Positions 2,556 through 59,361 of a DNA stretch of 64,000 nt are shown here, piece by piece. The stretch lies in IMG/VR virus record IMGVR_UViG_2703718833_000007, positions 1 to 64,000 of that record, one strand, 5' to 3'. This DNA comes from a virus. Lineage: Duplodnaviria > Heunggongvirae > Uroviricota > Caudoviricetes. The position numbers and the translations under genes are program-made. Each line of letters opens with the position of its first letter. Within the stretch, counting starts at the first letter, position 1. Under the pieces are notes generated by a model. That model was not told where the DNA came from. It searched no databases and saw nothing but the letters and a program-made list of their open reading frames with translations.

Positions 2556-3971
2556 TTAAAAAGATGCGTTATTCTGATTGTTTCGTTGGTTAAAACGGCT
2601 TGTGCGATGATTCATTGACTGAATACACGCTGCGGCTGCGCGCGCCTGGTCGCATGGCAAGATATTACCGTTGTCATCAAACCGCTGGTAAACAGTTCCA
2701 GACTTACCATGACGGTTTTTTGACACAATGATTTCCATGTATTCGCGGGCAACAGACTGCTCGTCGTAATACCCATCGCGGTAAACCATGATTATTCTGT
2801 CGGCATCTTGCTCAAGGTTGCCGGAATCACGAAGATCAGAATTATTAGGGCGCTTGTTTGGTCGTTCCTCAACTCGTCGTGATAATTGCGCCAGCGCTAA
2901 CACTGGAACGCGCAATTCTTTCGCCATCATCTTCAACGACCATGACAATTGCCCAACAGCGAGATCATGACGTTCTGCCTTAGCCAGCTTCATCAACCCT
3001 ATGTAGTCAATCATTACCATACCCAGGTTGGGATGTTCCTGTTTCATCCGTTCCGTGGTGGCGCGTATTTCCTCAACCGTTAACTGCGACGCGTCAACGA
3101 TCCACACATCAAGATTAGCAAGTGCGCTCATACCCTGGCCGACATGCGCCCAACCCTCATCATCAAGTTTTACAGGATTGCGCAGGCAGTCAGTTGATAA
3201 ATTACCAGCGCCAGCGATAGCGCGTTCAGTCATCTGATCGAGTGACATTTCAAGCGTGAATAACAAAACGCCAACCCGCTGATCCTTGCTGCCAGGGTAA
3301 GGGCGTTCAGCAGCAGCGCGGGCAATTGCCAGCGCCAACGCAGATTTACCAGACCCAGGGCGTCCGGCGAGAAGCACCAGATCAGTAGCGTTAATGCCGC
3401 CTAACATTTCGTCGAGTGGTTCTATCCCTGTTTTGATGTTGTCAGAATTGACACCGCATTCCATGCGCTTACTTAAAACTTCCGTGTATTCCTGGACAGC
3501 ATCGCGCAACAGAACAGGGATAATCTTGTCTTTCGTTACCTTTAATTTTGAATACCGGGAATCAAAATCTTTCATCGTCTCTTTGACGACCTCAAGCGTC
3601 CCCGTCTCCAGTTTGTAGCGCATATCGTCGATGAGTTCCAACATCTGCCGCCGCTGGTGCTCTTCACGTAGTAGCTGTGCGTATCCCTTCAGGTTGGCAG
3701 CAGACGGGCACGATCTCGCTGTTTGCATTAGCGGTACGAAATTTTCATTACCAATCTCATCACCGACCAGCAATGCATCGATGAGATTCCTGTTTCTGGC
3801 TTGTGCCCGGATAATTTCAAAAGCCCGCTTATACAGCGGAATAGTGAACACTTCAGGATCAAGCGTAGCGAGAACATCTTGCGCGTTAGGGGTTAGGCCA
3901 CCTAACAGCAGCCCGCCGATAACTGACGCCTCACGTTCCTGCCGTAGTGAGTTTATTTGCTCAGTTACCAT
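2556..3971 (-). CDS. DnaB-family replicative DNA helicase
   Basis: 471 aa; Walker A GRPGSGKSALAL and DnaB C-terminal RecA-like domain motifs. Confidence 0.85.
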   Translation of the reverse strand: MVTEQINSLRQEREASVIGGLLLGGLTPNAQDVLATLDPEVFTIPLYKRAFEIIRAQARNRNLIDALLVGDEIGNENFVPLMQTARSCPSAANLKGYAQLLREEHQRRQMLELIDDMRYKLETGTLEVVKETMKDFDSRYSKLKVTKDKIIPVLLRDAVQEYTEVLSKRMECGVNSDNIKTGIEPLDEMLGGINATDLVLLAGRPGSGKSALALAIARAAAERPYPGSKDQRVGVLLFTLEMSLDQMTERAIAGAGNLSTDCLRNPVKLDDEGWAHVGQGMSALANLDVWIVDASQLTVEEIRATTERMKQEHPNLGMVMIDYIGLMKLAKAERHDLAVGQLSWSLKMMAKELRVPVLALAQLSRRVEERPNKRPNNSDLRDSGNLEQDADRIIMVYRDGYYDEQSVAREYMEIIVSKNRHGKSGTVYQRFDDNGNILPCDQARAAAACIQSMNHRTSRFNQRNNQNNASF

Positions 3972-24009: not shown

Positions 24010-24501
24010 ATGATTAGCCAATCGCTGAAAAACCGACTAACTAAGGCGGCGGCTGGTGGAACGTTAGCCATTGCATCTGTTTTGCTTGTATGGGTTGAGG
24101 GTACGGCTTACGAGCCTTATTACGATACCGGAGGCGTGCTAACTGTATGCAATGGCATAACCGGCCATGATGTTGTCCCTGGTAAGAGATATACACCGGA
24201 TGAATGCGAGAGACTTTTGCAAAAGCATTTAACCGTTCACAAAAAGGCGGTTGATCGTTATGTAAAAGTTGACATGAATGATTATCAACGCGCAGCGCTA
24301 ATTAGCTTTTCATACAATATCGGGGTTGACGCTTTCAAAAAATCAACCTTGTTAAAAAAAATAAACAAAGGCGACTTTAAGGGAGCGTGTAAGGAGATGG
24401 ATCGCTGGGTGTATGACAATGGGAGATATATACAAGGCTTAAAGAATCGTCGCGATATTGAACGTGCTATATGTGAATGGGGCGTAACCAATGGAAAGTG
24501 A
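24010..24501 (+). CDS. SAR endolysin (GH24 phage lysozyme with N-terminal signal-anchor-release helix)
   Basis: 163 aa from ATG 24010; weakly hydrophobic Gly/Ala-rich N-terminal helix; lysozyme motifs recalled as similar to phage 21 R. Confidence 0.8.
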   Translation: MISQSLKNRLTKAAAGGTLAIASVLLVWVEGTAYEPYYDTGGVLTVCNGITGHDVVPGKRYTPDECERLLQKHLTVHKKAVDRYVKVDMNDYQRAALISFSYNIGVDAFKKSTLLKKINKGDFKGACKEMDRWVYDNGRYIQGLKNRRDIERAICEWGVTNGK

Positions 24502-25012
24502 TGATGAACTAAAACGAAAGCTACACTACGATCCAGCGACAGGTATTTTCACCTATAAGATTAGTCCTCACGGGAGAATCAAGGCCGGAAGCGTAGCCGG
24601 GTGTAAGCATAAAAGCGGATACATACACATAGGAAGATATAAAGCGCATCGCCTTGCGTGGTTTTTCCATTATGGAGTGTGGCCCGAAAAGGACATTGAC
24701 CATATTAATGGAATAAAAACCGACAACAGGATAGTAAACCTGCGAGAAACAGATGATGCGCATAACTGCAGAAACAAGAAACATATTGCCACTCACACAT
24801 TGTCTGCATTCAGGGGTGTTAGCTACCACAAAACAGAGAGAAGCAAGCCTAAATGGCGAGTAAGAATTACCGACAATGAAGGTAAGCGTATATCTATTGG
24901 TTTATTTGACTCACTAGACGAAGCGATCGCCGCTCGCATTTTGGCGGAAAACTTTTTCTATGGTGAATATGCACCTTCGATGGGTTGCGAGGGTGAAACA
25001 TGGACAAGGTGA
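24491..25012 (+). CDS. HNH endonuclease with AP2 domain, copy 3 (divergent), inserted between endolysin and Rz
   Basis: IDHINGIKTDNRIVNL HNH_3 motif and AP2-like RGV...W segment. Confidence 0.7.
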   Translation: MESDDELKRKLHYDPATGIFTYKISPHGRIKAGSVAGCKHKSGYIHIGRYKAHRLAWFFHYGVWPEKDIDHINGIKTDNRIVNLRETDDAHNCRNKKHIATHTLSAFRGVSYHKTERSKPKWRVRITDNEGKRISIGLFDSLDEAIAARILAENFFYGEYAPSMGCEGETWTR

Positions 25013-25470: not shown

Positions 25471-25750
25471 CAGCGCGTGGACGTGTCGCCGTTTCTGCCA
25501 GCCAGCCATAACCGGGCCAATCCTTCCCGCGAGCGACGGCGGAAAAGTCAAAAACACGTAATACCGGATGCACGTCATCCCATTAACAGGTCAGGCGCTA
25601 CCTGGGTAGAAGAAAGCGCCACCCACCAGTTTATAAAATTCTGCAAACGTTACTCACACAGCGCCGTTTTCAGTGTTTTATAGCTGTTTTCACTCCCTGC
25701 TGTGTCCAGTTTTGCGGGGGTTATATTTTTCAGGATAGAGGAATATTCTG

Positions 25751-26335
25751 ATGGCTAAGGCTAAAGGCATTAAGTTGCCTCAATTCAAAGTCCCGCTCTT
25801 TGAGCATACAACAGTTTTCTTTTGCCCGACCCGCGACATGTTCTATGAATTTTGCGAAAAGGCAGGGATCCCAATCGAACCTGATTTCGAACTGGCAGGA
25901 GGATTAACACTTACTTGCACTGGCGAGAAAGGCGGTAACTTCTACGTGATCGCAGTATTCGACAATGAGTTAGGAACTCTGGTGCATGAAGCGGCCCACA
26001 CTACGTTTCACGTATTAAGTGATGTAGGCGTAGTGGCGACCACTGATCCCAGCCATCCGGCAAACGAGACTTATGCTTACATGGTAGGCCGCATCTTTGA
26101 TGCTTTCTTCCCCATCCTGGCGGAATCAAATGAAGCACAGGTGGCAGCAATGCAGGCAGCTGAAGTCGTAGAGAAGGCATTAGAACAGGCAGAAAAGGCG
26201 ACTGATGCAGCAGAGCAGGCAGTAGAGCAGGCAGAGGAGCCGAAAGAAGAGAAAAAACCAGCTAAGAAAGGCAAACGTAAGCCTAAAGCAAAAGAGGCGC
26301 TTGTACCGCGTATTATGAGCTTTAAACGAGGCTGA
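25751..26335 (+). CDS. hypothetical protein with HExxH motif and Lys/Ala/Glu-rich C-terminal tail
   Basis: 194 aa; LVHEAAHTTFH contains HEAAH; basic low-complexity tail. Confidence 0.4.
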   Translation: MAKAKGIKLPQFKVPLFEHTTVFFCPTRDMFYEFCEKAGIPIEPDFELAGGLTLTCTGEKGGNFYVIAVFDNELGTLVHEAAHTTFHVLSDVGVVATTDPSHPANETYAYMVGRIFDAFFPILAESNEAQVAAMQAAEVVEKALEQAEKATDAAEQAVEQAEEPKEEKKPAKKGKRKPKAKEALVPRIMSFKRG

Positions 26336-26337
26336 TT

Positions 26338-26412
26338 ATGATTGACCCGCTCATTATCCTTTCTTCCTGCGTCGCTGTATGGCTGGCGATCATGATATTC
26401 ATTGAAAGCTGA
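26338..26412 (+). CDS. micro-ORF 1 of tandem array: 24-aa single-TM peptide
   Basis: MIDPLIILSSCVAVWLAIMIFIES; GAGG RBS; starts 3 nt after upstream stop. Confidence 0.35.
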   Translation: MIDPLIILSSCVAVWLAIMIFIES

Positions 26413-26422
26413 AGGTGTTCAC

Positions 26423-26497
26423 ATGAATATTTACGATCTCATCTGGTGGTCGTTGGTCGCCGTCATTATCTATTTATGGTGGAAGAATGTTGTATAG
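26423..26497 (+). CDS. micro-ORF 2: 24-aa single-TM peptide
   Basis: MNIYDLIWWSLVAVIIYLWWKNVV; AAGGTG RBS. Confidence 0.35.
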   Translation: MNIYDLIWWSLVAVIIYLWWKNVV

Positions 26498-26505
26498 GTG
26501 ACGGC

Positions 26506-26604
26506 ATGGATATATTCGAATTACTGGCGATTATGTGCGGAATGATGTTAGGCACTGTCGCCATAATCATCATCATCGGCCTTGTTATGGGTAGCATCAA
26601 ATGA
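26506..26604 (+). CDS. micro-ORF 3: 32-aa single-TM peptide
   Basis: MDIFELLAIMCGMMLGTVAIIIIIGLVMGSIK; AGGTGA RBS. Confidence 0.35.
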   Translation: MDIFELLAIMCGMMLGTVAIIIIIGLVMGSIK

Positions 26605-26681
26605 ACGCATACGAAATGCTATTGCTGGTGGCTGTTATTACAGTTATCGCCGTTGATTTTTATCGAGGGTTGAAAAGATGA
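26601..26681 (+). CDS. micro-ORF 4: 26-aa single-TM peptide
   Basis: MNAYEMLLLVAVITVIAVDFYRGLKR; ATGA overlap with ORF 3. Confidence 0.35.
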   Translation: MNAYEMLLLVAVITVIAVDFYRGLKR

Positions 26682-26749
26682 GAGAAGCAGACTTCTTTTG
26701 CATGATTATGGTGATCGTCATCGTTGCCGTGCTTTTAAGCGTTAACTGA
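26678..26749 (+). CDS. micro-ORF 5: 23-aa single-TM peptide
   Basis: MREADFFCMIMVIVIVAVLLSVN; ATGA overlap with ORF 4. Confidence 0.35.
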   Translation: MREADFFCMIMVIVIVAVLLSVN

Positions 26750-26767
26750 ATCGCAGGGGGGTTAAAA

Positions 26768-26836
26768 ATGAAATGGCTTGATTTCTTTTTCCTGATCGTT
26801 GCGATTGTTCTTACCATGACCGCGCTGACTCAATAG
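26768..26836 (+). CDS. micro-ORF 6: 22-aa single-TM peptide
   Basis: MKWLDFFFLIVAIVLTMTALTQ; GGGGGG RBS. Confidence 0.35.
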   Translation: MKWLDFFFLIVAIVLTMTALTQ

Positions 26837-26905
26837 GTTATGGCTTGGACGCGCATTTTATGCGCTTCCTAAACTTAGTAAGCCAAAGAAAGAGAATGGC
26901 AAGCA

Positions 26906-26989
26906 ATGAAATATCTATCAAGTTGGTTGGGTGTATCAATATACTTCGCAACATTAATCGAGTGTTTATATATAGTGAATAAATTTTAA
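26906..26989 (+). CDS. micro-ORF 7: 27-aa hydrophobic peptide (weaker RBS)
   Basis: MKYLSSWLGVSIYFATLIECLYIVNKF; ends 10 nt before terminase small subunit start. Confidence 0.25.
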   Translation: MKYLSSWLGVSIYFATLIECLYIVNKF

Positions 26990-26999
26990 GAGGTGAATT

Positions 27000-27485
27000 A
27001 TGGCCCGCACTAAAAAGGCAAAGGCTGACGATAAAAAGCCAGCAGCTAAAAAGGTGGGCCGTCCGCATGGTTATACCGAAGAAAAGGCATTAGAGATCTG
27101 TGAGCTGGTGGCGGACGGTCAGAGCGTTAACAAAATTTCAAAAATGCCAGGTATGCCAACACGTTCGACAATCCTTAAGTGGTTCCGTGATGTGCCTGAA
27201 TTTTCGGACATGTACGTGAGAGCGAAGGAGATCGGTTTTGAGGTATTAGCTGATGAGATCATCGATATAGCTGACGCAGCTGAGAATATTGATAAGGATG
27301 AATTGCGCCGCCATCAATTAATGATTGAAACCCGTAAATGGCTATTGGCAAAACTGCAACCGCGTAAATATGGTGAACGCGTCACGCAGGAAATCGTTGG
27401 TAACAGGGAGGAATCACCCGTCCAGGTTGAAGTCACGAAAGAAGAGATCGCCCGCATCGTCCAGGAAGTAGAAGACGAGGTGTGA
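27000..27485 (+). CDS. terminase small subunit
   Basis: 161 aa; basic N-terminus, HTH-like segment, directly upstream of large terminase; GAGGTGA RBS. Confidence 0.65.
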   Translation: MARTKKAKADDKKPAAKKVGRPHGYTEEKALEICELVADGQSVNKISKMPGMPTRSTILKWFRDVPEFSDMYVRAKEIGFEVLADEIIDIADAAENIDKDELRRHQLMIETRKWLLAKLQPRKYGERVTQEIVGNREESPVQVEVTKEEIARIVQEVEDEV

Positions 27486-28966
27486 TTATGTTGACAATCA
27501 AAGAACGAGTTATTCAGTCCAAATGTGAAAACGATGGCCTGTTTTTCAATCGCTATTTCTATAAACAAGCGAACGGAACGAAGATGTTAATCTCAGGCCA
27601 TCATTTAGCTATCCGTGATGCACTGCAACGCGTTATTAATGGTGAGATCACCCGCCTCATCATTAACATCCCCCCAGGGTACGGCAAAACCATGATCGCA
27701 ACTATCAACATGATGGCGCGGTCACTCGCAATAAATCCCCGCACAAGATTCCTTCACGTTTCCTATTCCAACAACCTGGCATTACTCAATTCCTCGACTG
27801 TAAGAAACATGATCTGTACGCCTGAATATCAGGCAATGTGGCCCATGAAGATCCGCAACGATGCCAACAGTAAATCGATGTGGTGGACTGAATACGGTGG
27901 CGGCGTGTATGCAACGTCATCGCTTGGCCAGGTAACTGGGTTCCGTGCAGGGTATATGGAACCGGGATTTAACGGCGCGTTAATCATCGACGACCCATTA
28001 AAACCGGCTGACGCTTACTCTGACGTGGTGAGAAAGCAGGTAAACACCAACTATAACGACACACTTGCTTCACGTCTGGCAGTGCAAACAACGCCTGTCA
28101 TCGTCATCATGCAGCGCATCCACTACGATGATTTGTCCGGCTACTTGCTACGCGGTGGGAGCGGTGAAAAGTGGTATCACCTTAACCTGCCAGTGAAGAT
28201 CGACAATAGCGTTGACTATCGGGATTTGTACCCTGAAAACGAGTTCGCAATCCCTATCGCTCACAACCTGCCTGATGGCTGGCTGTGGCCTAAAAAGCAC
28301 AATGACGCCCATGAAGCTGGACTGAAAGCACACAGGCGGTCATTTGAAGCCCAGTACATGCAGCGCCCGCGTAAATTCGACGAAGAGGGTGCATTGTGGA
28401 CTGAAGCCATGATAACCGCAGCGCACCGGATGCAGATAACGCAGGATAAGGTTCGCACGGTGATAGCCATAGACCCGGCGACAACGTCATCTGACGAATC
28501 GGACGAAACGGGGATCGTGGCATGTTCCGCCTATGGTGGCGGCAAGAATGCTCAGTATTCTGTTGATGGCGACTACTCAGGCCGCATGTCTCCTAACGAC
28601 TGGGCGCAAGCCTCAATGAACGCCTACAACATCCATGAAGCTGACGCGATAGTTATCGAAACCAACCAGGGCGGCGAAATGGCAGAGGCCACGTTGCGTA
28701 ATGCCGGATTCAAGGGCCGCATTGTTAAGGTGCACGCAAGCAAAGGTAAGTTCGCCCGTGCTGAACCAATATCCGCACTATATGCGCAGGGAAGGGTAGC
28801 CCACACTGGCAGCCTGTACACGCTGGAGAATCAAATGATGGAATACGTGCCAGCCACCGCAAAAAAATCCCCTGACCGTATGGACGCTATGGTATGGGGA
28901 ATCACTGAATTAAGCCAACCGCAGGCAATGGGCCTCATGTTACCGAAGCGCCTGCGCGGATTTTAA
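27482..28966 (+). CDS. terminase large subunit (likely ATG start at 27488)
   Basis: 494 aa; P-loop-like PPGYGKT, ATPase plus nuclease arrangement. Confidence 0.8.
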   Translation: MIMLTIKERVIQSKCENDGLFFNRYFYKQANGTKMLISGHHLAIRDALQRVINGEITRLIINIPPGYGKTMIATINMMARSLAINPRTRFLHVSYSNNLALLNSSTVRNMICTPEYQAMWPMKIRNDANSKSMWWTEYGGGVYATSSLGQVTGFRAGYMEPGFNGALIIDDPLKPADAYSDVVRKQVNTNYNDTLASRLAVQTTPVIVIMQRIHYDDLSGYLLRGGSGEKWYHLNLPVKIDNSVDYRDLYPENEFAIPIAHNLPDGWLWPKKHNDAHEAGLKAHRRSFEAQYMQRPRKFDEEGALWTEAMITAAHRMQITQDKVRTVIAIDPATTSSDESDETGIVACSAYGGGKNAQYSVDGDYSGRMSPNDWAQASMNAYNIHEADAIVIETNQGGEMAEATLRNAGFKGRIVKVHASKGKFARAEPISALYAQGRVAHTGSLYTLENQMMEYVPATAKKSPDRMDAMVWGITELSQPQAMGLMLPKRLRGF

Positions 28967-29044
28967 AATCTGACTCACAATCCCCCACAAGTTTTTCTAT
29001 TTTTCGCGTAGCAACGCGTAAACATGTATTCAGGAGTAAACATT

Positions 29045-30415
29045 ATGCCATCAAATTTAGATTTGGCGGTTAATGCTGCCTTGTCACAACGCCAGGCGGC
29101 CTATGCCCGCTATACCGCAGCACACCCATTCACGATGGGGATAGATGCCAAACGCGATGCTGCGTGGAGTGAATACGGATTCAAAGAAGAGATCACGTAT
29201 GAAGACCTGTACAAACTGTACAGACGCGGTGGTATCGCTCACGGTGCTGTAGAGAAGATTGTTACTACGTGCTGGCGCACCATGCCGATGCTGATAGAAG
29301 GCACGGAAGACGAGAAAGCAGAAAAGGAAACACCGTGGGAAAGGGAAATCAAAAAGCAATTCGATAACAGATTTTGGCGTGTTATTGCCGAATGTGATCG
29401 CCGCCGCCTCATTGGTCGTTACGCTGGCCTGTTGATTCATGCCAGAGATAACCAGCCGTGGGAAAAGCCAGTCACAAAAGGCGTAGGTATTGCCAAATTT
29501 ACCCCGGTATGGGCTGGTGCTCTTACGCCGAAGGAGTTCGAAGAAGACCCGAACAGTGAAAATTATGGCCTGCCTACATGGTGGGAATACAAAGAACGCA
29601 TTAACAGTAAGACCATTGCCAGAAGAATCCACCCTGATCGCATATTCATCTTTGGCGACTATTCCGATGATGCCATCGCTTTCCTTGAACCTTCCTATAA
29701 CGCCTTTGTGTCACTGGAGAAGGTGGAAGGTGGTAGCGGTGAATCATTCCTGAAAAACGCCGCCCGTCAGCTTGCTATCTCATTCGATAAGGAAATTGAT
29801 TTCCGTTCCCTGGCCGCTACATACGATTGCGACGTTACAGAGTTACGCGAAAGATTCAATGAGGCTGCGGCTGAAATGAATAAGGGTAACGATGTGATGA
29901 TGGCATTACAAGGGGCGACAGTAAGCCCGCTGGTGACTGCCGTATCTGATCCGTCAGCAACCTATGACGTCAACCTGCAAACCGCCGCCGCTGGCATTGA
30001 TATTCCAACCCGCATCCTGGTTGGGAACCAGCAGGGCGAACGCGCATCAACCGAAGATCTGCGTTACTTCAACAGCCGCTGTATGACCCGCAGGGAAGAG
30101 ATTGGCGGTGAGCTTGAGGATTTATTCAGCAAGATGGCAGATCTGCGCCTTATCAGTATGCCAGTAGATATATCAGTGATATGGGACGACCTGAACGCCA
30201 TGACCAAAGCCGAACTACTGGAAGCTGCACACAAGATGGCGCAAATCAATCAGGCTTGCCTTGCTACTGGTGAAGAAATATTTAGCGGTGATGAGATCCG
30301 CGAGGCTGCCGGATACGATGGCCCTGCCAGTGTAGTAGAAATGGAAGAGGAAAACGATGATGAAGGTGAAGAAGATAATCAGGCGAATACCTCCAGCCGC
30401 GATAATGCCATCTAA
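29045..30415 (+). CDS. portal protein
   Basis: About 456 aa, follows terminase, acidic C-terminus. Confidence 0.65.
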   Translation: MPSNLDLAVNAALSQRQAAYARYTAAHPFTMGIDAKRDAAWSEYGFKEEITYEDLYKLYRRGGIAHGAVEKIVTTCWRTMPMLIEGTEDEKAEKETPWEREIKKQFDNRFWRVIAECDRRRLIGRYAGLLIHARDNQPWEKPVTKGVGIAKFTPVWAGALTPKEFEEDPNSENYGLPTWWEYKERINSKTIARRIHPDRIFIFGDYSDDAIAFLEPSYNAFVSLEKVEGGSGESFLKNAARQLAISFDKEIDFRSLAATYDCDVTELRERFNEAAAEMNKGNDVMMALQGATVSPLVTAVSDPSATYDVNLQTAAAGIDIPTRILVGNQQGERASTEDLRYFNSRCMTRREEIGGELEDLFSKMADLRLISMPVDISVIWDDLNAMTKAELLEAAHKMAQINQACLATGEEIFSGDEIREAAGYDGPASVVEMEEENDDEGEEDNQANTSSRDNAI

Positions 30416-54749: not shown

Positions 54750-54871
54750 GCAGGTGAATGCAACGTCAAGCGATGGGCGTTGCGCTCCATATTGTCTTAC
54801 TTCCTTTTTTGAATTACTGCATAGCACAATTGATTCGTACGACGCCGACTTTGATGAGTCGGCTTTTTTTT
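54750..54871 (+). ncRNA. fnrS: FnrS small regulatory RNA
   Basis: Between zntB and dbpA; begins GCAGGTGAATGCAACGTC and ends with GCCGACT...AGTCGGC hairpin plus T8; matches recalled FnrS locus. Confidence 0.6.
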
Positions 54872-59151: not shown

Positions 59152-59361
59152 TTAATTTGAATACAATGCAATTCTCGAGGACTGAAGTTTCTCGCAATTA
59201 AAATTTATCAGTTTTACTTTCTGCTCTCTGGAAACGCCTGCTTCTTTTTTACCTGAGAGCATTTTTTCGCATTCTGATTTCGTTAGTTTAGATTTTGAAT
59301 ATCTTGTCCAGTTAGTAGGAGTGCCACCTTCCTTTTCAATAGTGGCGGTAATTTTATACAT
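59152..59361 (-). CDS. rcbA: Rac small protein RcbA-like
   Basis: Track ORF 93 aa; likely 69 aa from MYKITATIEK; assignment from recalled Rac gene order. Confidence 0.5.
   Translation of the reverse strand: MYKITATIEKEGGTPTNWTRYSKSKLTKSECEKMLSGKKEAGVSREQKVKLINFNCEKLQSSRIALYSN

Follow-up and report, generated by a model that had tools for sequence, protein, structure and literature searches.

Bacterial inner-membrane regulators of fewer than 50 aa with a single transmembrane (TM) helix, such as AcrZ, MgtS, KdpF, PmrR, and MgrB, were long overlooked (PMC12648545), and sets of adjacent small membrane-protein genes with unassigned function have been described in Arthrobacter phages of clusters AM and AU and in Rhodococcus phages Pepy6 and Poco6 (PMC5513430). 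Here, we report a tandem array of seven ultra-small open reading frames (ORFs), each predicted to encode one membrane helix, at positions 26338-26989 of a 64,000-nucleotide stretch of prophage DNA (the window; IMG/VR record IMGVR_UViG_2703718833_000007, positions 1 to 64,000). The array fills the interval between a homologue of gene gp49 and the small terminase subunit gene (TerS). We consider it reasonably probable that this 650-bp "gap" is a polycistronic array of real mini-genes, which would encode translationally coupled membrane mini-proteins forming a fast-turnover accessory repertoire.

The window represents an Escherichia coli prophage of the mEp021-like type (mEpimmI group), and the region is 88 to 92% identical to phages mEp021, mEp010, mEp013, mEp044, mEp515, mEp554, and MagusPhagus. 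The mEpimmI group comprises temperate, Nus-dependent, non-lambdoid coliphages, which are reportedly as common as lambdoid phages in human gut E. coli and have a characterised Lpp-type exclusion lipoprotein (PMC11893012).

Organization and coding status of the array

The seven consecutive ORFs (24, 24, 32, 26, 23, 22, and 27 codons) lie on the + strand, as do the gp49 homologue and TerS, and occupy 82% of the 664 nt between these two genes; the gp49 stop lies 2 nt 5' of the first mini-ORF. Each ORF encodes one hydrophobic helix (mean Kyte-Doolittle score of the best 17-residue segment, 1.76 to 3.24 across all seven), and ATGA overlaps join ORF3 to ORF4 (26601-26604) and ORF4 to ORF5 (26678-26681). 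An earlier note on this DNA, made without database searches, had described seven single-helix ORFs of 22 to 32 aa with two ATGA-coupled pairs, placed after an HExxH protein and before the small terminase; the coordinates, hydropathy, overlaps, and neighbours (Table 1) all bear out that description.

Six to seven non-overlapping small TM-like ATG ORFs were observed in the 664 nt, compared with a mean of 0.80 (standard deviation, 0.76; maximum, 4) in 2000 dinucleotide-preserving shuffles of the same 664 nt, which argues against chance ORFs. The array was the top-scoring spot on both strands of the 64-kb window, and nothing comparable was found in phages lambda and Sf6 (at most 2 to 4 such ORFs). 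At codon position 2 of the array ORFs, T makes up 56%.

Conservation was assessed over 63 loci, consisting of the window, 7 phages, 7 E. coli prophages, 46 IMG/VR contigs fetched via TerS, and 2 metagenome or read-archive contigs (ENA, Logan) fetched via distant gp49 homologues; family occurrence and architectures were counted in 60 scored loci. In all 63, the gp49-TerS gap (about 210 to 1158 nt) contains 2 to 13 same-strand mini-ORFs of 20 to 47 codons. These mini-ORFs, or cassettes, form about 22 families in a fixed order (A1-A5, B1-B3, C1-C2, D, E1-E2, F-N), the assignment of very short hydrophobic peptides being approximate (one cassette of locus L013 is ambiguous, I or L). Seven of the families, D, E1, F, G, H, I, and N, are represented in the window. 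Cassette N alone is universal (60/60 scored loci, and also loci L061, L062, and L065); G, D, and I are near-universal, and the remaining families occur in 2 to 42 of the 60. Intact cassettes number 549 in the 60 loci and cover 88% of all gap nucleotides, and about seven distinct broken copies were seen (lost start codons, a premature stop, two truncations, and one fusion).

Nonsynonymous (pN) and synonymous (pS) differences were computed pairwise. With all families pooled, over comparisons that are not independent of one another, the called frame gave a pS of 0.287 and a pN of 0.076 (ratio, 0.27). The two alternative sense frames gave pN/pS values of 1.01 and 1.33, and the three antisense frames gave 0.86, 0.35, and 1.66. 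Each family with data lay between 0.13 and 0.42, and variable sites at codon positions 1, 2, and 3 numbered 157, 109, and 275 (chi-square P = 3e-18). Every ORF has a conserved ATG that either follows a Shine-Dalgarno (SD)-like motif by 5 to 9 nt or overlaps the previous stop. Because pN/pS is frame specific and intact cassettes cover so much of the gap, the ORFs are read as genes, neither a packaging site nor chance ORFs; judged from these substitution patterns, the mini-ORFs are real protein-coding genes under purifying selection. The proposal of the earlier note that these are genuine ultra-small membrane-peptide genes thus gains from the comparison that it had itself suggested, since the same frames are kept in 63 loci with synonymous drift, breakpoints fall at start codons, and frame conservation together with selection excludes the purely non-coding packaging (pac) site that it had named as an alternative.

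The encoded peptides have a common architecture: Met followed by 1 to 5 polar residues, an acidic N-terminal flank, a hydrophobic run of 13 to 30 residues, and a neutral or basic C-terminal flank. The N-terminal flank is net negative in 17 of 22 families and positive in 0 of 22, the C-terminal flank is basic in 11, and by the positive-inside rule most peptides should lie N-out/C-in in the inner membrane; the A families, in first position, appear inverted. Most window peptides have little or no charged tail, and six of the seven are at most 27 aa long. Like known small membrane proteins, they are shorter than 50 aa with a single predicted TM helix by hydropathy, by charge bias, and by an AlphaFold2 (AF2) model of the longest, cassette M (47 aa), which is a single helix with a predicted local distance difference test (pLDDT) score of 90. 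Shuffle-calibrated alignments linked H/I/L (+K), C1/G/E1 (+E2), A1/A2/B1, and B2/B3 as paralogue groups (z = 4 to 15; median pair, z = 0.6). The single paralogous family suggested earlier is therefore upheld in part: ORF2-ORF4 and ORF5-ORF6 are paralogous pairs, but ORF1, ORF3, and ORF7 are not demonstrably related to the others.

Table 1. Coordinates of the array, its cassettes, and neighbouring genes (window positions unless another locus is named; pN/pS is given per family)
Feature	Coordinates	Strand	Length	Sequence	Remarks
HNH (+AP2) homing-endonuclease genes	24491-25012; L061, 2252-2773; L007, 2070-2555; L062, 4750-5253	+ (window)			
gp49 homologue	25751-26335	+	194 aa		HEAAH; conserved HExxHxxxH motif, acidic coiled middle, basic tail
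Mini-ORF 1, cassette family D	26338-26412	+	24 aa	MIDPLIILSSCVAVWLAIMIFIES	57/60 loci; 28 nucleotide alleles; pN/pS 0.28; SD GAGG, within the gp49 3' end
Mini-ORF 2, cassette family E1	26423-26497	+	24 aa	MNIYDLIWWSLVAVIIYLWWKNVV	42/60 loci; pN/pS 0.34; SD AGGTG; paralogue of C1 and G
Mini-ORF 3, cassette family F	26506-26604	+	32 aa	MDIFELL...GSIK, MDIFELLAIMCGMMLGTVAIIIIIGLVMGSIK	27/60 loci; pN/pS 0.15; SD AGGTGA inside the reused junction TGTTGTATAGGTGA
Mini-ORF 4, cassette family G	26601-26681	+	26 aa	MNAYEML...GLKR, MNAYEMLLLVAVITVIAVDFYRGLKR	58/60 loci; 33 alleles; pN/pS 0.26; C-terminal flank basic
Mini-ORF 5, cassette family H	26678-26749	+	23 aa	MREADFF...SVN, MREADFFCMIMVIVIVAVLLSVN	22/60 loci; pN/pS 0.24; paralogue of I and L (z = 7.0 and 8.9)
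Mini-ORF 6, cassette family I	26768-26836	+	22 aa	MKWLDFF...LTQ, MKWLDFFFLIVAIVLTMTALTQ	55/60 loci; 33 alleles; pN/pS 0.13 (pN 0.037, pS 0.280)
Non-cassette spacer	26837-26905	+	59-69 nt across relatives	short hairpin GGACGCGCATTTTATGCGCTTCC	Conserved
Mini-ORF 7, cassette family N	26906-26989	+	27 aa	MKYLSSW...VNKF, MKYLSSWLGVSIYFATLIECLYIVNKF	10 nt 5' of TerS start; 31 alleles; pN/pS 0.24; minor allele in window (N vs Nw, z = 10.8), SD weak in window
Small terminase subunit, TerS	27000-27485	+	161 aa		Sf6 type; PF20901, E = 4e-37; SD GAGGTGA
TerL	27482-28966				Follows TerS
Portal	29024-30415				After TerL

Cassette gain and loss

Between neighbouring ORFs the junctions range from -14 to +17 nt. 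They contain motifs of the GGTGA, GAGG, or GGGG type, and the same junction is reused irrespective of the cassette that follows it. Reused junctions include the gp49 end (...AACGAGGCTGATTATG), that from E1 to F, G, or E2 (...TGTTGTATAGGTGA...), and that from K, L, or M to N (...AAGGGTAAACAATG). Gain and loss affect whole ORFs. The breakpoints lie at the SD-ATG junction or in 5' ends shared by paralogues: E1 and F are missing from mEp021 and F from mEp044, the alignment breakpoints falling exactly at the ATG and, in mEp021, within an ATGAA common to the paralogues E1 and G. Phage mEp021, which has a K-12 host, carries five cassettes, and natural variants carry 2 to 13. The 60 loci displayed 42 architectures, and the architecture was the same in only 41% of pairs whose TerS/TerL were at least 99% identical. 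In the sequences compared, the array is a hot spot of unit-wise gain and loss; the simplest explanation of this turnover is recombination at the repeated SD-ATG junctions and between the 5' ends of paralogues.

The conserved non-cassette spacer of the window (26837-26905) recurs with its hairpin between I (or H) and N, only in arrays that have no cassettes J to M. RNA folding showed nothing out of the ordinary (z = -0.95) and Rfam gave no match; the spacer could be either a remnant or a regulator. The frame of an ATG inside it agrees with that of N in some loci but not in the window. Separately, five loci (L014, L037, L042, L046, and L060, at about 3335-3500) have an extra ORF of about 50 codons between N and TerS, soluble and acidic (…SNEELKMADEIRKALDAAENNE…), which the window does not have.

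Database searches and annotation status

Searches of PHROGs, Pfam, and NCBIfam with 10 peptides returned nothing significant (no Pfam or NCBIfam match below E = 0.01), the best holin match being that of cassette M to phrog_920 (E = 0.04), weak and non-significant. A cassette M profile searched against 1.84 billion representative proteins recovered its own family only. Mini-ORF 3 was the sole window peptide in the protein collection, where it is named "hypothetical protein," and three looked-up peptides shorter than 30 aa were absent from a collection of about 15 billion proteins. A concatenated-peptide search of a 5.8-billion-cluster database gave only four matches, all TGA read-through artefacts. 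Database "proteins" of 165 to 176 aa that span the array (P0121-P0124) are artefacts in which TGA stops are translated as Trp (alternative genetic code); these metagenome gene calls mask the real mini-genes.

In GenBank, the mEp021 record is empty between gp49 and TerS, some of the ORFs are called in PHANOTATE-based records (a few apparently extended in the wrong frame), and PGAP leaves prophage copies blank or calls one minus-strand coding sequence. Such a call, a 129-aa minus-strand hypothetical protein across the array, is present in the RefSeq/PGAP annotation of E. coli O157:H7 LSU61 (locus L012, 1790-2179) and is probably spurious because the selection signal is on the sense strand. No description of these ORFs was found in the literature, and the four peptides searched for were absent from the available part of the supplementary text of an Enterobacteriaceae microprotein catalogue. 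The impression recorded in the earlier note, that no phage system of this form had been described, therefore stands for these ORFs and less fully for the general arrangement, since small membrane-protein gene arrays are known in actinobacteriophages (PMC5513430).

In a wider search, tblastn of all 22 family seeds against 50,697 phage genomes placed cassettes only in seven mEpimmI-type phages, and gp49 and TerS profiles scanned against 100,044 species-representative genomes retrieved no relatives in either scan. Weak, hydrophobic matches of the seeds to rV5-like phages (E of about 0.01 to 0.1) were judged spurious. An IMG/VR profile scan returned the same 47 loci as the single-protein scan, leaving no sister group for dating the array. 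As far as these sequence searches extend, the cassettes were found only in the mEpimmI phage group.

No excess of promoters or terminators was found around the array: promoter-like sites numbered 6 in 4.3 kb (4/6 on the minus strand), where shuffles expect 7.5. No Rfam family was detected near the array at the gathering threshold or at E of at most 1, a search that an undescribed small RNA (sRNA) could still escape.

Flanking regions

Upstream of gp49 lie a holin, an endolysin, an inserted HNH/AP2 endonuclease, Rz, and a 280-nt non-coding stretch. The holin is of class II (PF16080). The array is about 870 nt downstream of the holin/endolysin/Rz cassette on the same strand, with the conserved non-coding stretch and gp49 intervening. 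In that stretch (window 25471-25750, between Rz and gp49), most alignment columns are at least 90% conserved across 46 distinct alleles; it has no credible ORF, no Rfam match, and no unusual RNA fold. Candidate roles in the packaging operon are those of late promoter, regulatory site, and pac site.

HNH (+AP2) genes occupy three insertion sites around the array in different relatives: between endolysin and Rz in the window and L061, between TerS and TerL in L062, and between gp49 and the array in mEp013, where the gp49 3' junction is duplicated. From upstream of the holin through the portal gene, mEp021 has no HNH endonuclease gene. Far from the array, Rfam gathering-level matches at window positions 54750-54867 and 59177-59355 correspond to the frnS sRNA and the RalA antitoxin sRNA (RalR system); because of these matches, the right end of the window is assigned to DNA beyond the mEpimmI-type prophage, either E. 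coli chromosome or a Rac-type prophage.

Proposed role and alternatives

The mini-genes lie tightly between gp49 and TerS, on the strand of both, and no promoter or terminator signal sets them apart; for this reason they would share a message with the packaging genes, with which they would probably be co-transcribed and translated during lytic growth. The Pf3 coat protein is a tiny, tail-less membrane protein that is inserted by a YidC-type route. The array peptides would insert into the inner membrane, probably by a route of this type, and each would bind a larger membrane protein through helix-helix contact, for example, a defence effector or a DNA-entry or transport protein. Cassette N, universal and last in the array, may serve a core function of its own, more central than that of the others and tied to the packaging operon. 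Our tentative view of the function is an accessory repertoire of TM-helix binders that would dock on larger host inner-membrane proteins; such a repertoire is favoured because turnover is extreme, families are many, and individual cassettes are dispensable. A bolder form, which we regard as doubtful, is a combinatorial repertoire of TM "mini-binders," a hypervariable cassette locus in which each member would neutralise a different host inner-membrane protein. Possible targets would include abortive-infection or defence effectors embedded in the membrane and the DNA-entry channels that competing phages use, and the locus would be shuffled via recombination at SD-ATG junctions. If this were true, the locus would represent a new counter-defence or exclusion class, hidden from annotation because its genes are shorter than 50 codons, and a natural example of rapid membrane micro-protein birth and turnover.

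Several observations weigh against the proposal of a translated membrane-binder repertoire. The antisense frame whose wobble positions coincide with those of the called frame has the low pN/pS of 0.35, for which a mirror effect is expected, although not formally excluded, and the flanking genes have lower ratios than the cassettes (gp49, 0.10; TerS, 0.17). An SD core of at least 4 nt precedes 4/7 starts, so the SD-like sequences reported earlier at most starts do exist, but their enrichment over all window ATGs is not significant (P = 0.17). Translation, membrane insertion, transcription timing, and any phenotype are putative, and the binding targets are purely inferred, no partner, homologue, or co-varying gene having been identified. 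The mini-ORFs are undiscussed in the sole paper on the phage group, whose virion-only proteomics would miss them (PMC11893012), and the position beside the lysis genes suits a role in lysis timing equally well.

The main rival builds on that position and is, in our estimate, rather unlikely: the peptides would be antiholin-like or holin-assisting modulators, made with the holin in the inner membrane, that either bind the class II holin or slightly shift the proton-motive force, with different cassette sets tuning lysis time. Small membrane proteins encoded beside lysis genes are known lysis regulators (P2 LysA/LysB, T4 RI, and lambda S107), a precedent that joins the same-strand location about 870 nt downstream of holin/endolysin/Rz and the weak, non-significant resemblance of cassette M to a holin PHROG (E = 0.04) in its favour. 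However, a complete lysis set is already encoded, and the array stands apart from it, beyond the 280-nt non-coding stretch and gp49; its coupling is instead to gp49 and TerS. No significant match to a holin or antiholin appeared in PHROG, Pfam, or NCBIfam, and 2 to 13 cassettes from 22 families are more variation than timing seems to need. Far less probable still is that the peptides are poisons that depolarise or permeabilise the inner membrane for host shutdown or killing, like type I toxins. Some toxins of the Ibs, Ldr, TisB, ShoB, and DinQ group occur as tandem chromosomal copies. The 22- to 47-aa length and single hydrophobic helix resemble that class (PMC2887945), as the earlier note had speculated, but a place in that class finds no support: the 10 peptides have no toxin-family match in Pfam or NCBIfam, Rfam offers no antitoxin sRNA family and there is no convincing antisense promoter, the genes sit in an operon with junctions of -14 to +17 nt rather than standing alone behind long regulated 5' untranslated regions, and many type I toxins end in a basic or polar tail, which most of the peptides do not have.

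Two further explanations dispense with peptide function. The ORFs could be translated spacers that keep ribosomes on the gp49-TerS message for coupling and avoidance of Rho-dependent polarity, their hydrophobicity being a by-product of T-rich DNA. Tight packing, stop/start codon overlaps, individual dispensability, and the T-rich composition (40.5% GC in the array region versus 45.8% in the window) suit such spacers, and hydrophobic microproteins arise readily from AT-rich DNA (PMC11188072). We nevertheless judge this improbable, as purifying selection acts on the amino acid sequence (cassette I, pN of 0.037 against pS of 0.280 in 55 loci), specific motifs are conserved, and growth to 13 ORFs is needless where a direct gp49-TerS junction would suffice. 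The last alternative supposes a pac site or another non-coding element, or else the remains of a polytopic membrane-protein gene, in which the ORFs are due to chance or are relics. It could draw on the location directly upstream of a headful-type terminase, the lack of PGAP annotation, and the 165- to 176-aa database "proteins" across the array, but it is largely refuted and retains next to no probability. The gap varies from about 210 to 1158 nt with variable content and no fixed DNA site conserved except cassette N, which itself evolves as coding sequence; frame-specific selection is strong and the shuffle test argues against chance ORFs; the long "proteins" come from reading TGA as Trp; and pseudogene decay would not retain an ATG and SD for each unit.

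Whichever role applies, about 1 kb per mEpimmI genome, with up to 13 genes, is annotated as empty or mis-called, and the locus is a tractable case for asking what ultra-small membrane proteins do and how they arise and turn over. If host membrane proteins are indeed the targets, the peptides would supply minimal transmembrane inhibitors and form a new category of phage-host conflict system; even if they only tune lysis, ORF-length cut-offs conceal whole operon segments under selection.

Comparison with known systems

The Staphylococcus aureus psm-alpha operon encodes four tandem peptides of about 21 aa, each with its own start, on one transcript and below annotation size. The coliphage array is alike in setting several peptides of about 20 aa head to tail, whereas the products of psm-alpha are amphipathic secreted Gram-positive cytolysins and not TM-type helices. 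Holins, antiholins, and lysis regulators (lambda S105/S107, P2 LysA/LysB, and T4 RI) are likewise small inner-membrane phage proteins encoded near the endolysin and act late in infection, but unlike the array peptides they are usually 60 to 150 aa with charged tails, and there are one or two per phage; the seven window peptides fall outside the class by size, architecture, and homology (PHROG, Pfam). Superinfection-exclusion proteins (T4 Imm, HK97 gp15, and P22 SieA), which block DNA entry, are also phage inner-membrane proteins from variable accessory genes, but they are larger and are expressed early or from the prophage, whereas the array has no promoter evidence for lysogenic expression. 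Type I toxins (Ibs, Ldr, TisB, ShoB, Hok, and DinQ) share with the array peptides their tiny size, hydrophobicity, single helix, E. coli host, and, in some cases, tandem arrangement (PMC2887945, PMC3567139); the array differs in that no antisense RNA, stand-alone regulated transcript, or family match was found and in its acidic N-terminal flank.

The closest functional analogy appears to be with the bacterial small membrane regulators of the AcrZ/MgtS class, which act by binding larger membrane proteins, and this mode of action is adopted as the working model for the array peptides. No sequence similarity to these regulator families was found in Pfam or NCBIfam; the regulators are single chromosomal genes with their own regulation, whereas the array comprises up to 13 unrelated or paralogous genes in a phage operon with cassette turnover. 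The closest genomic analogy, by description, would be with the small membrane-protein gene arrays of Arthrobacter and Rhodococcus phages (PMC5513430), with which no homology is expected: those proteins have 1 to 5 TM segments and an annotatable size, and their genes lie downstream of tail genes in phages of Gram-positive hosts, whereas the coliphage peptides are 20 to 47 aa with a single predicted helix, and their genes lie between lysis and terminase genes and are present or absent as precise cassettes.

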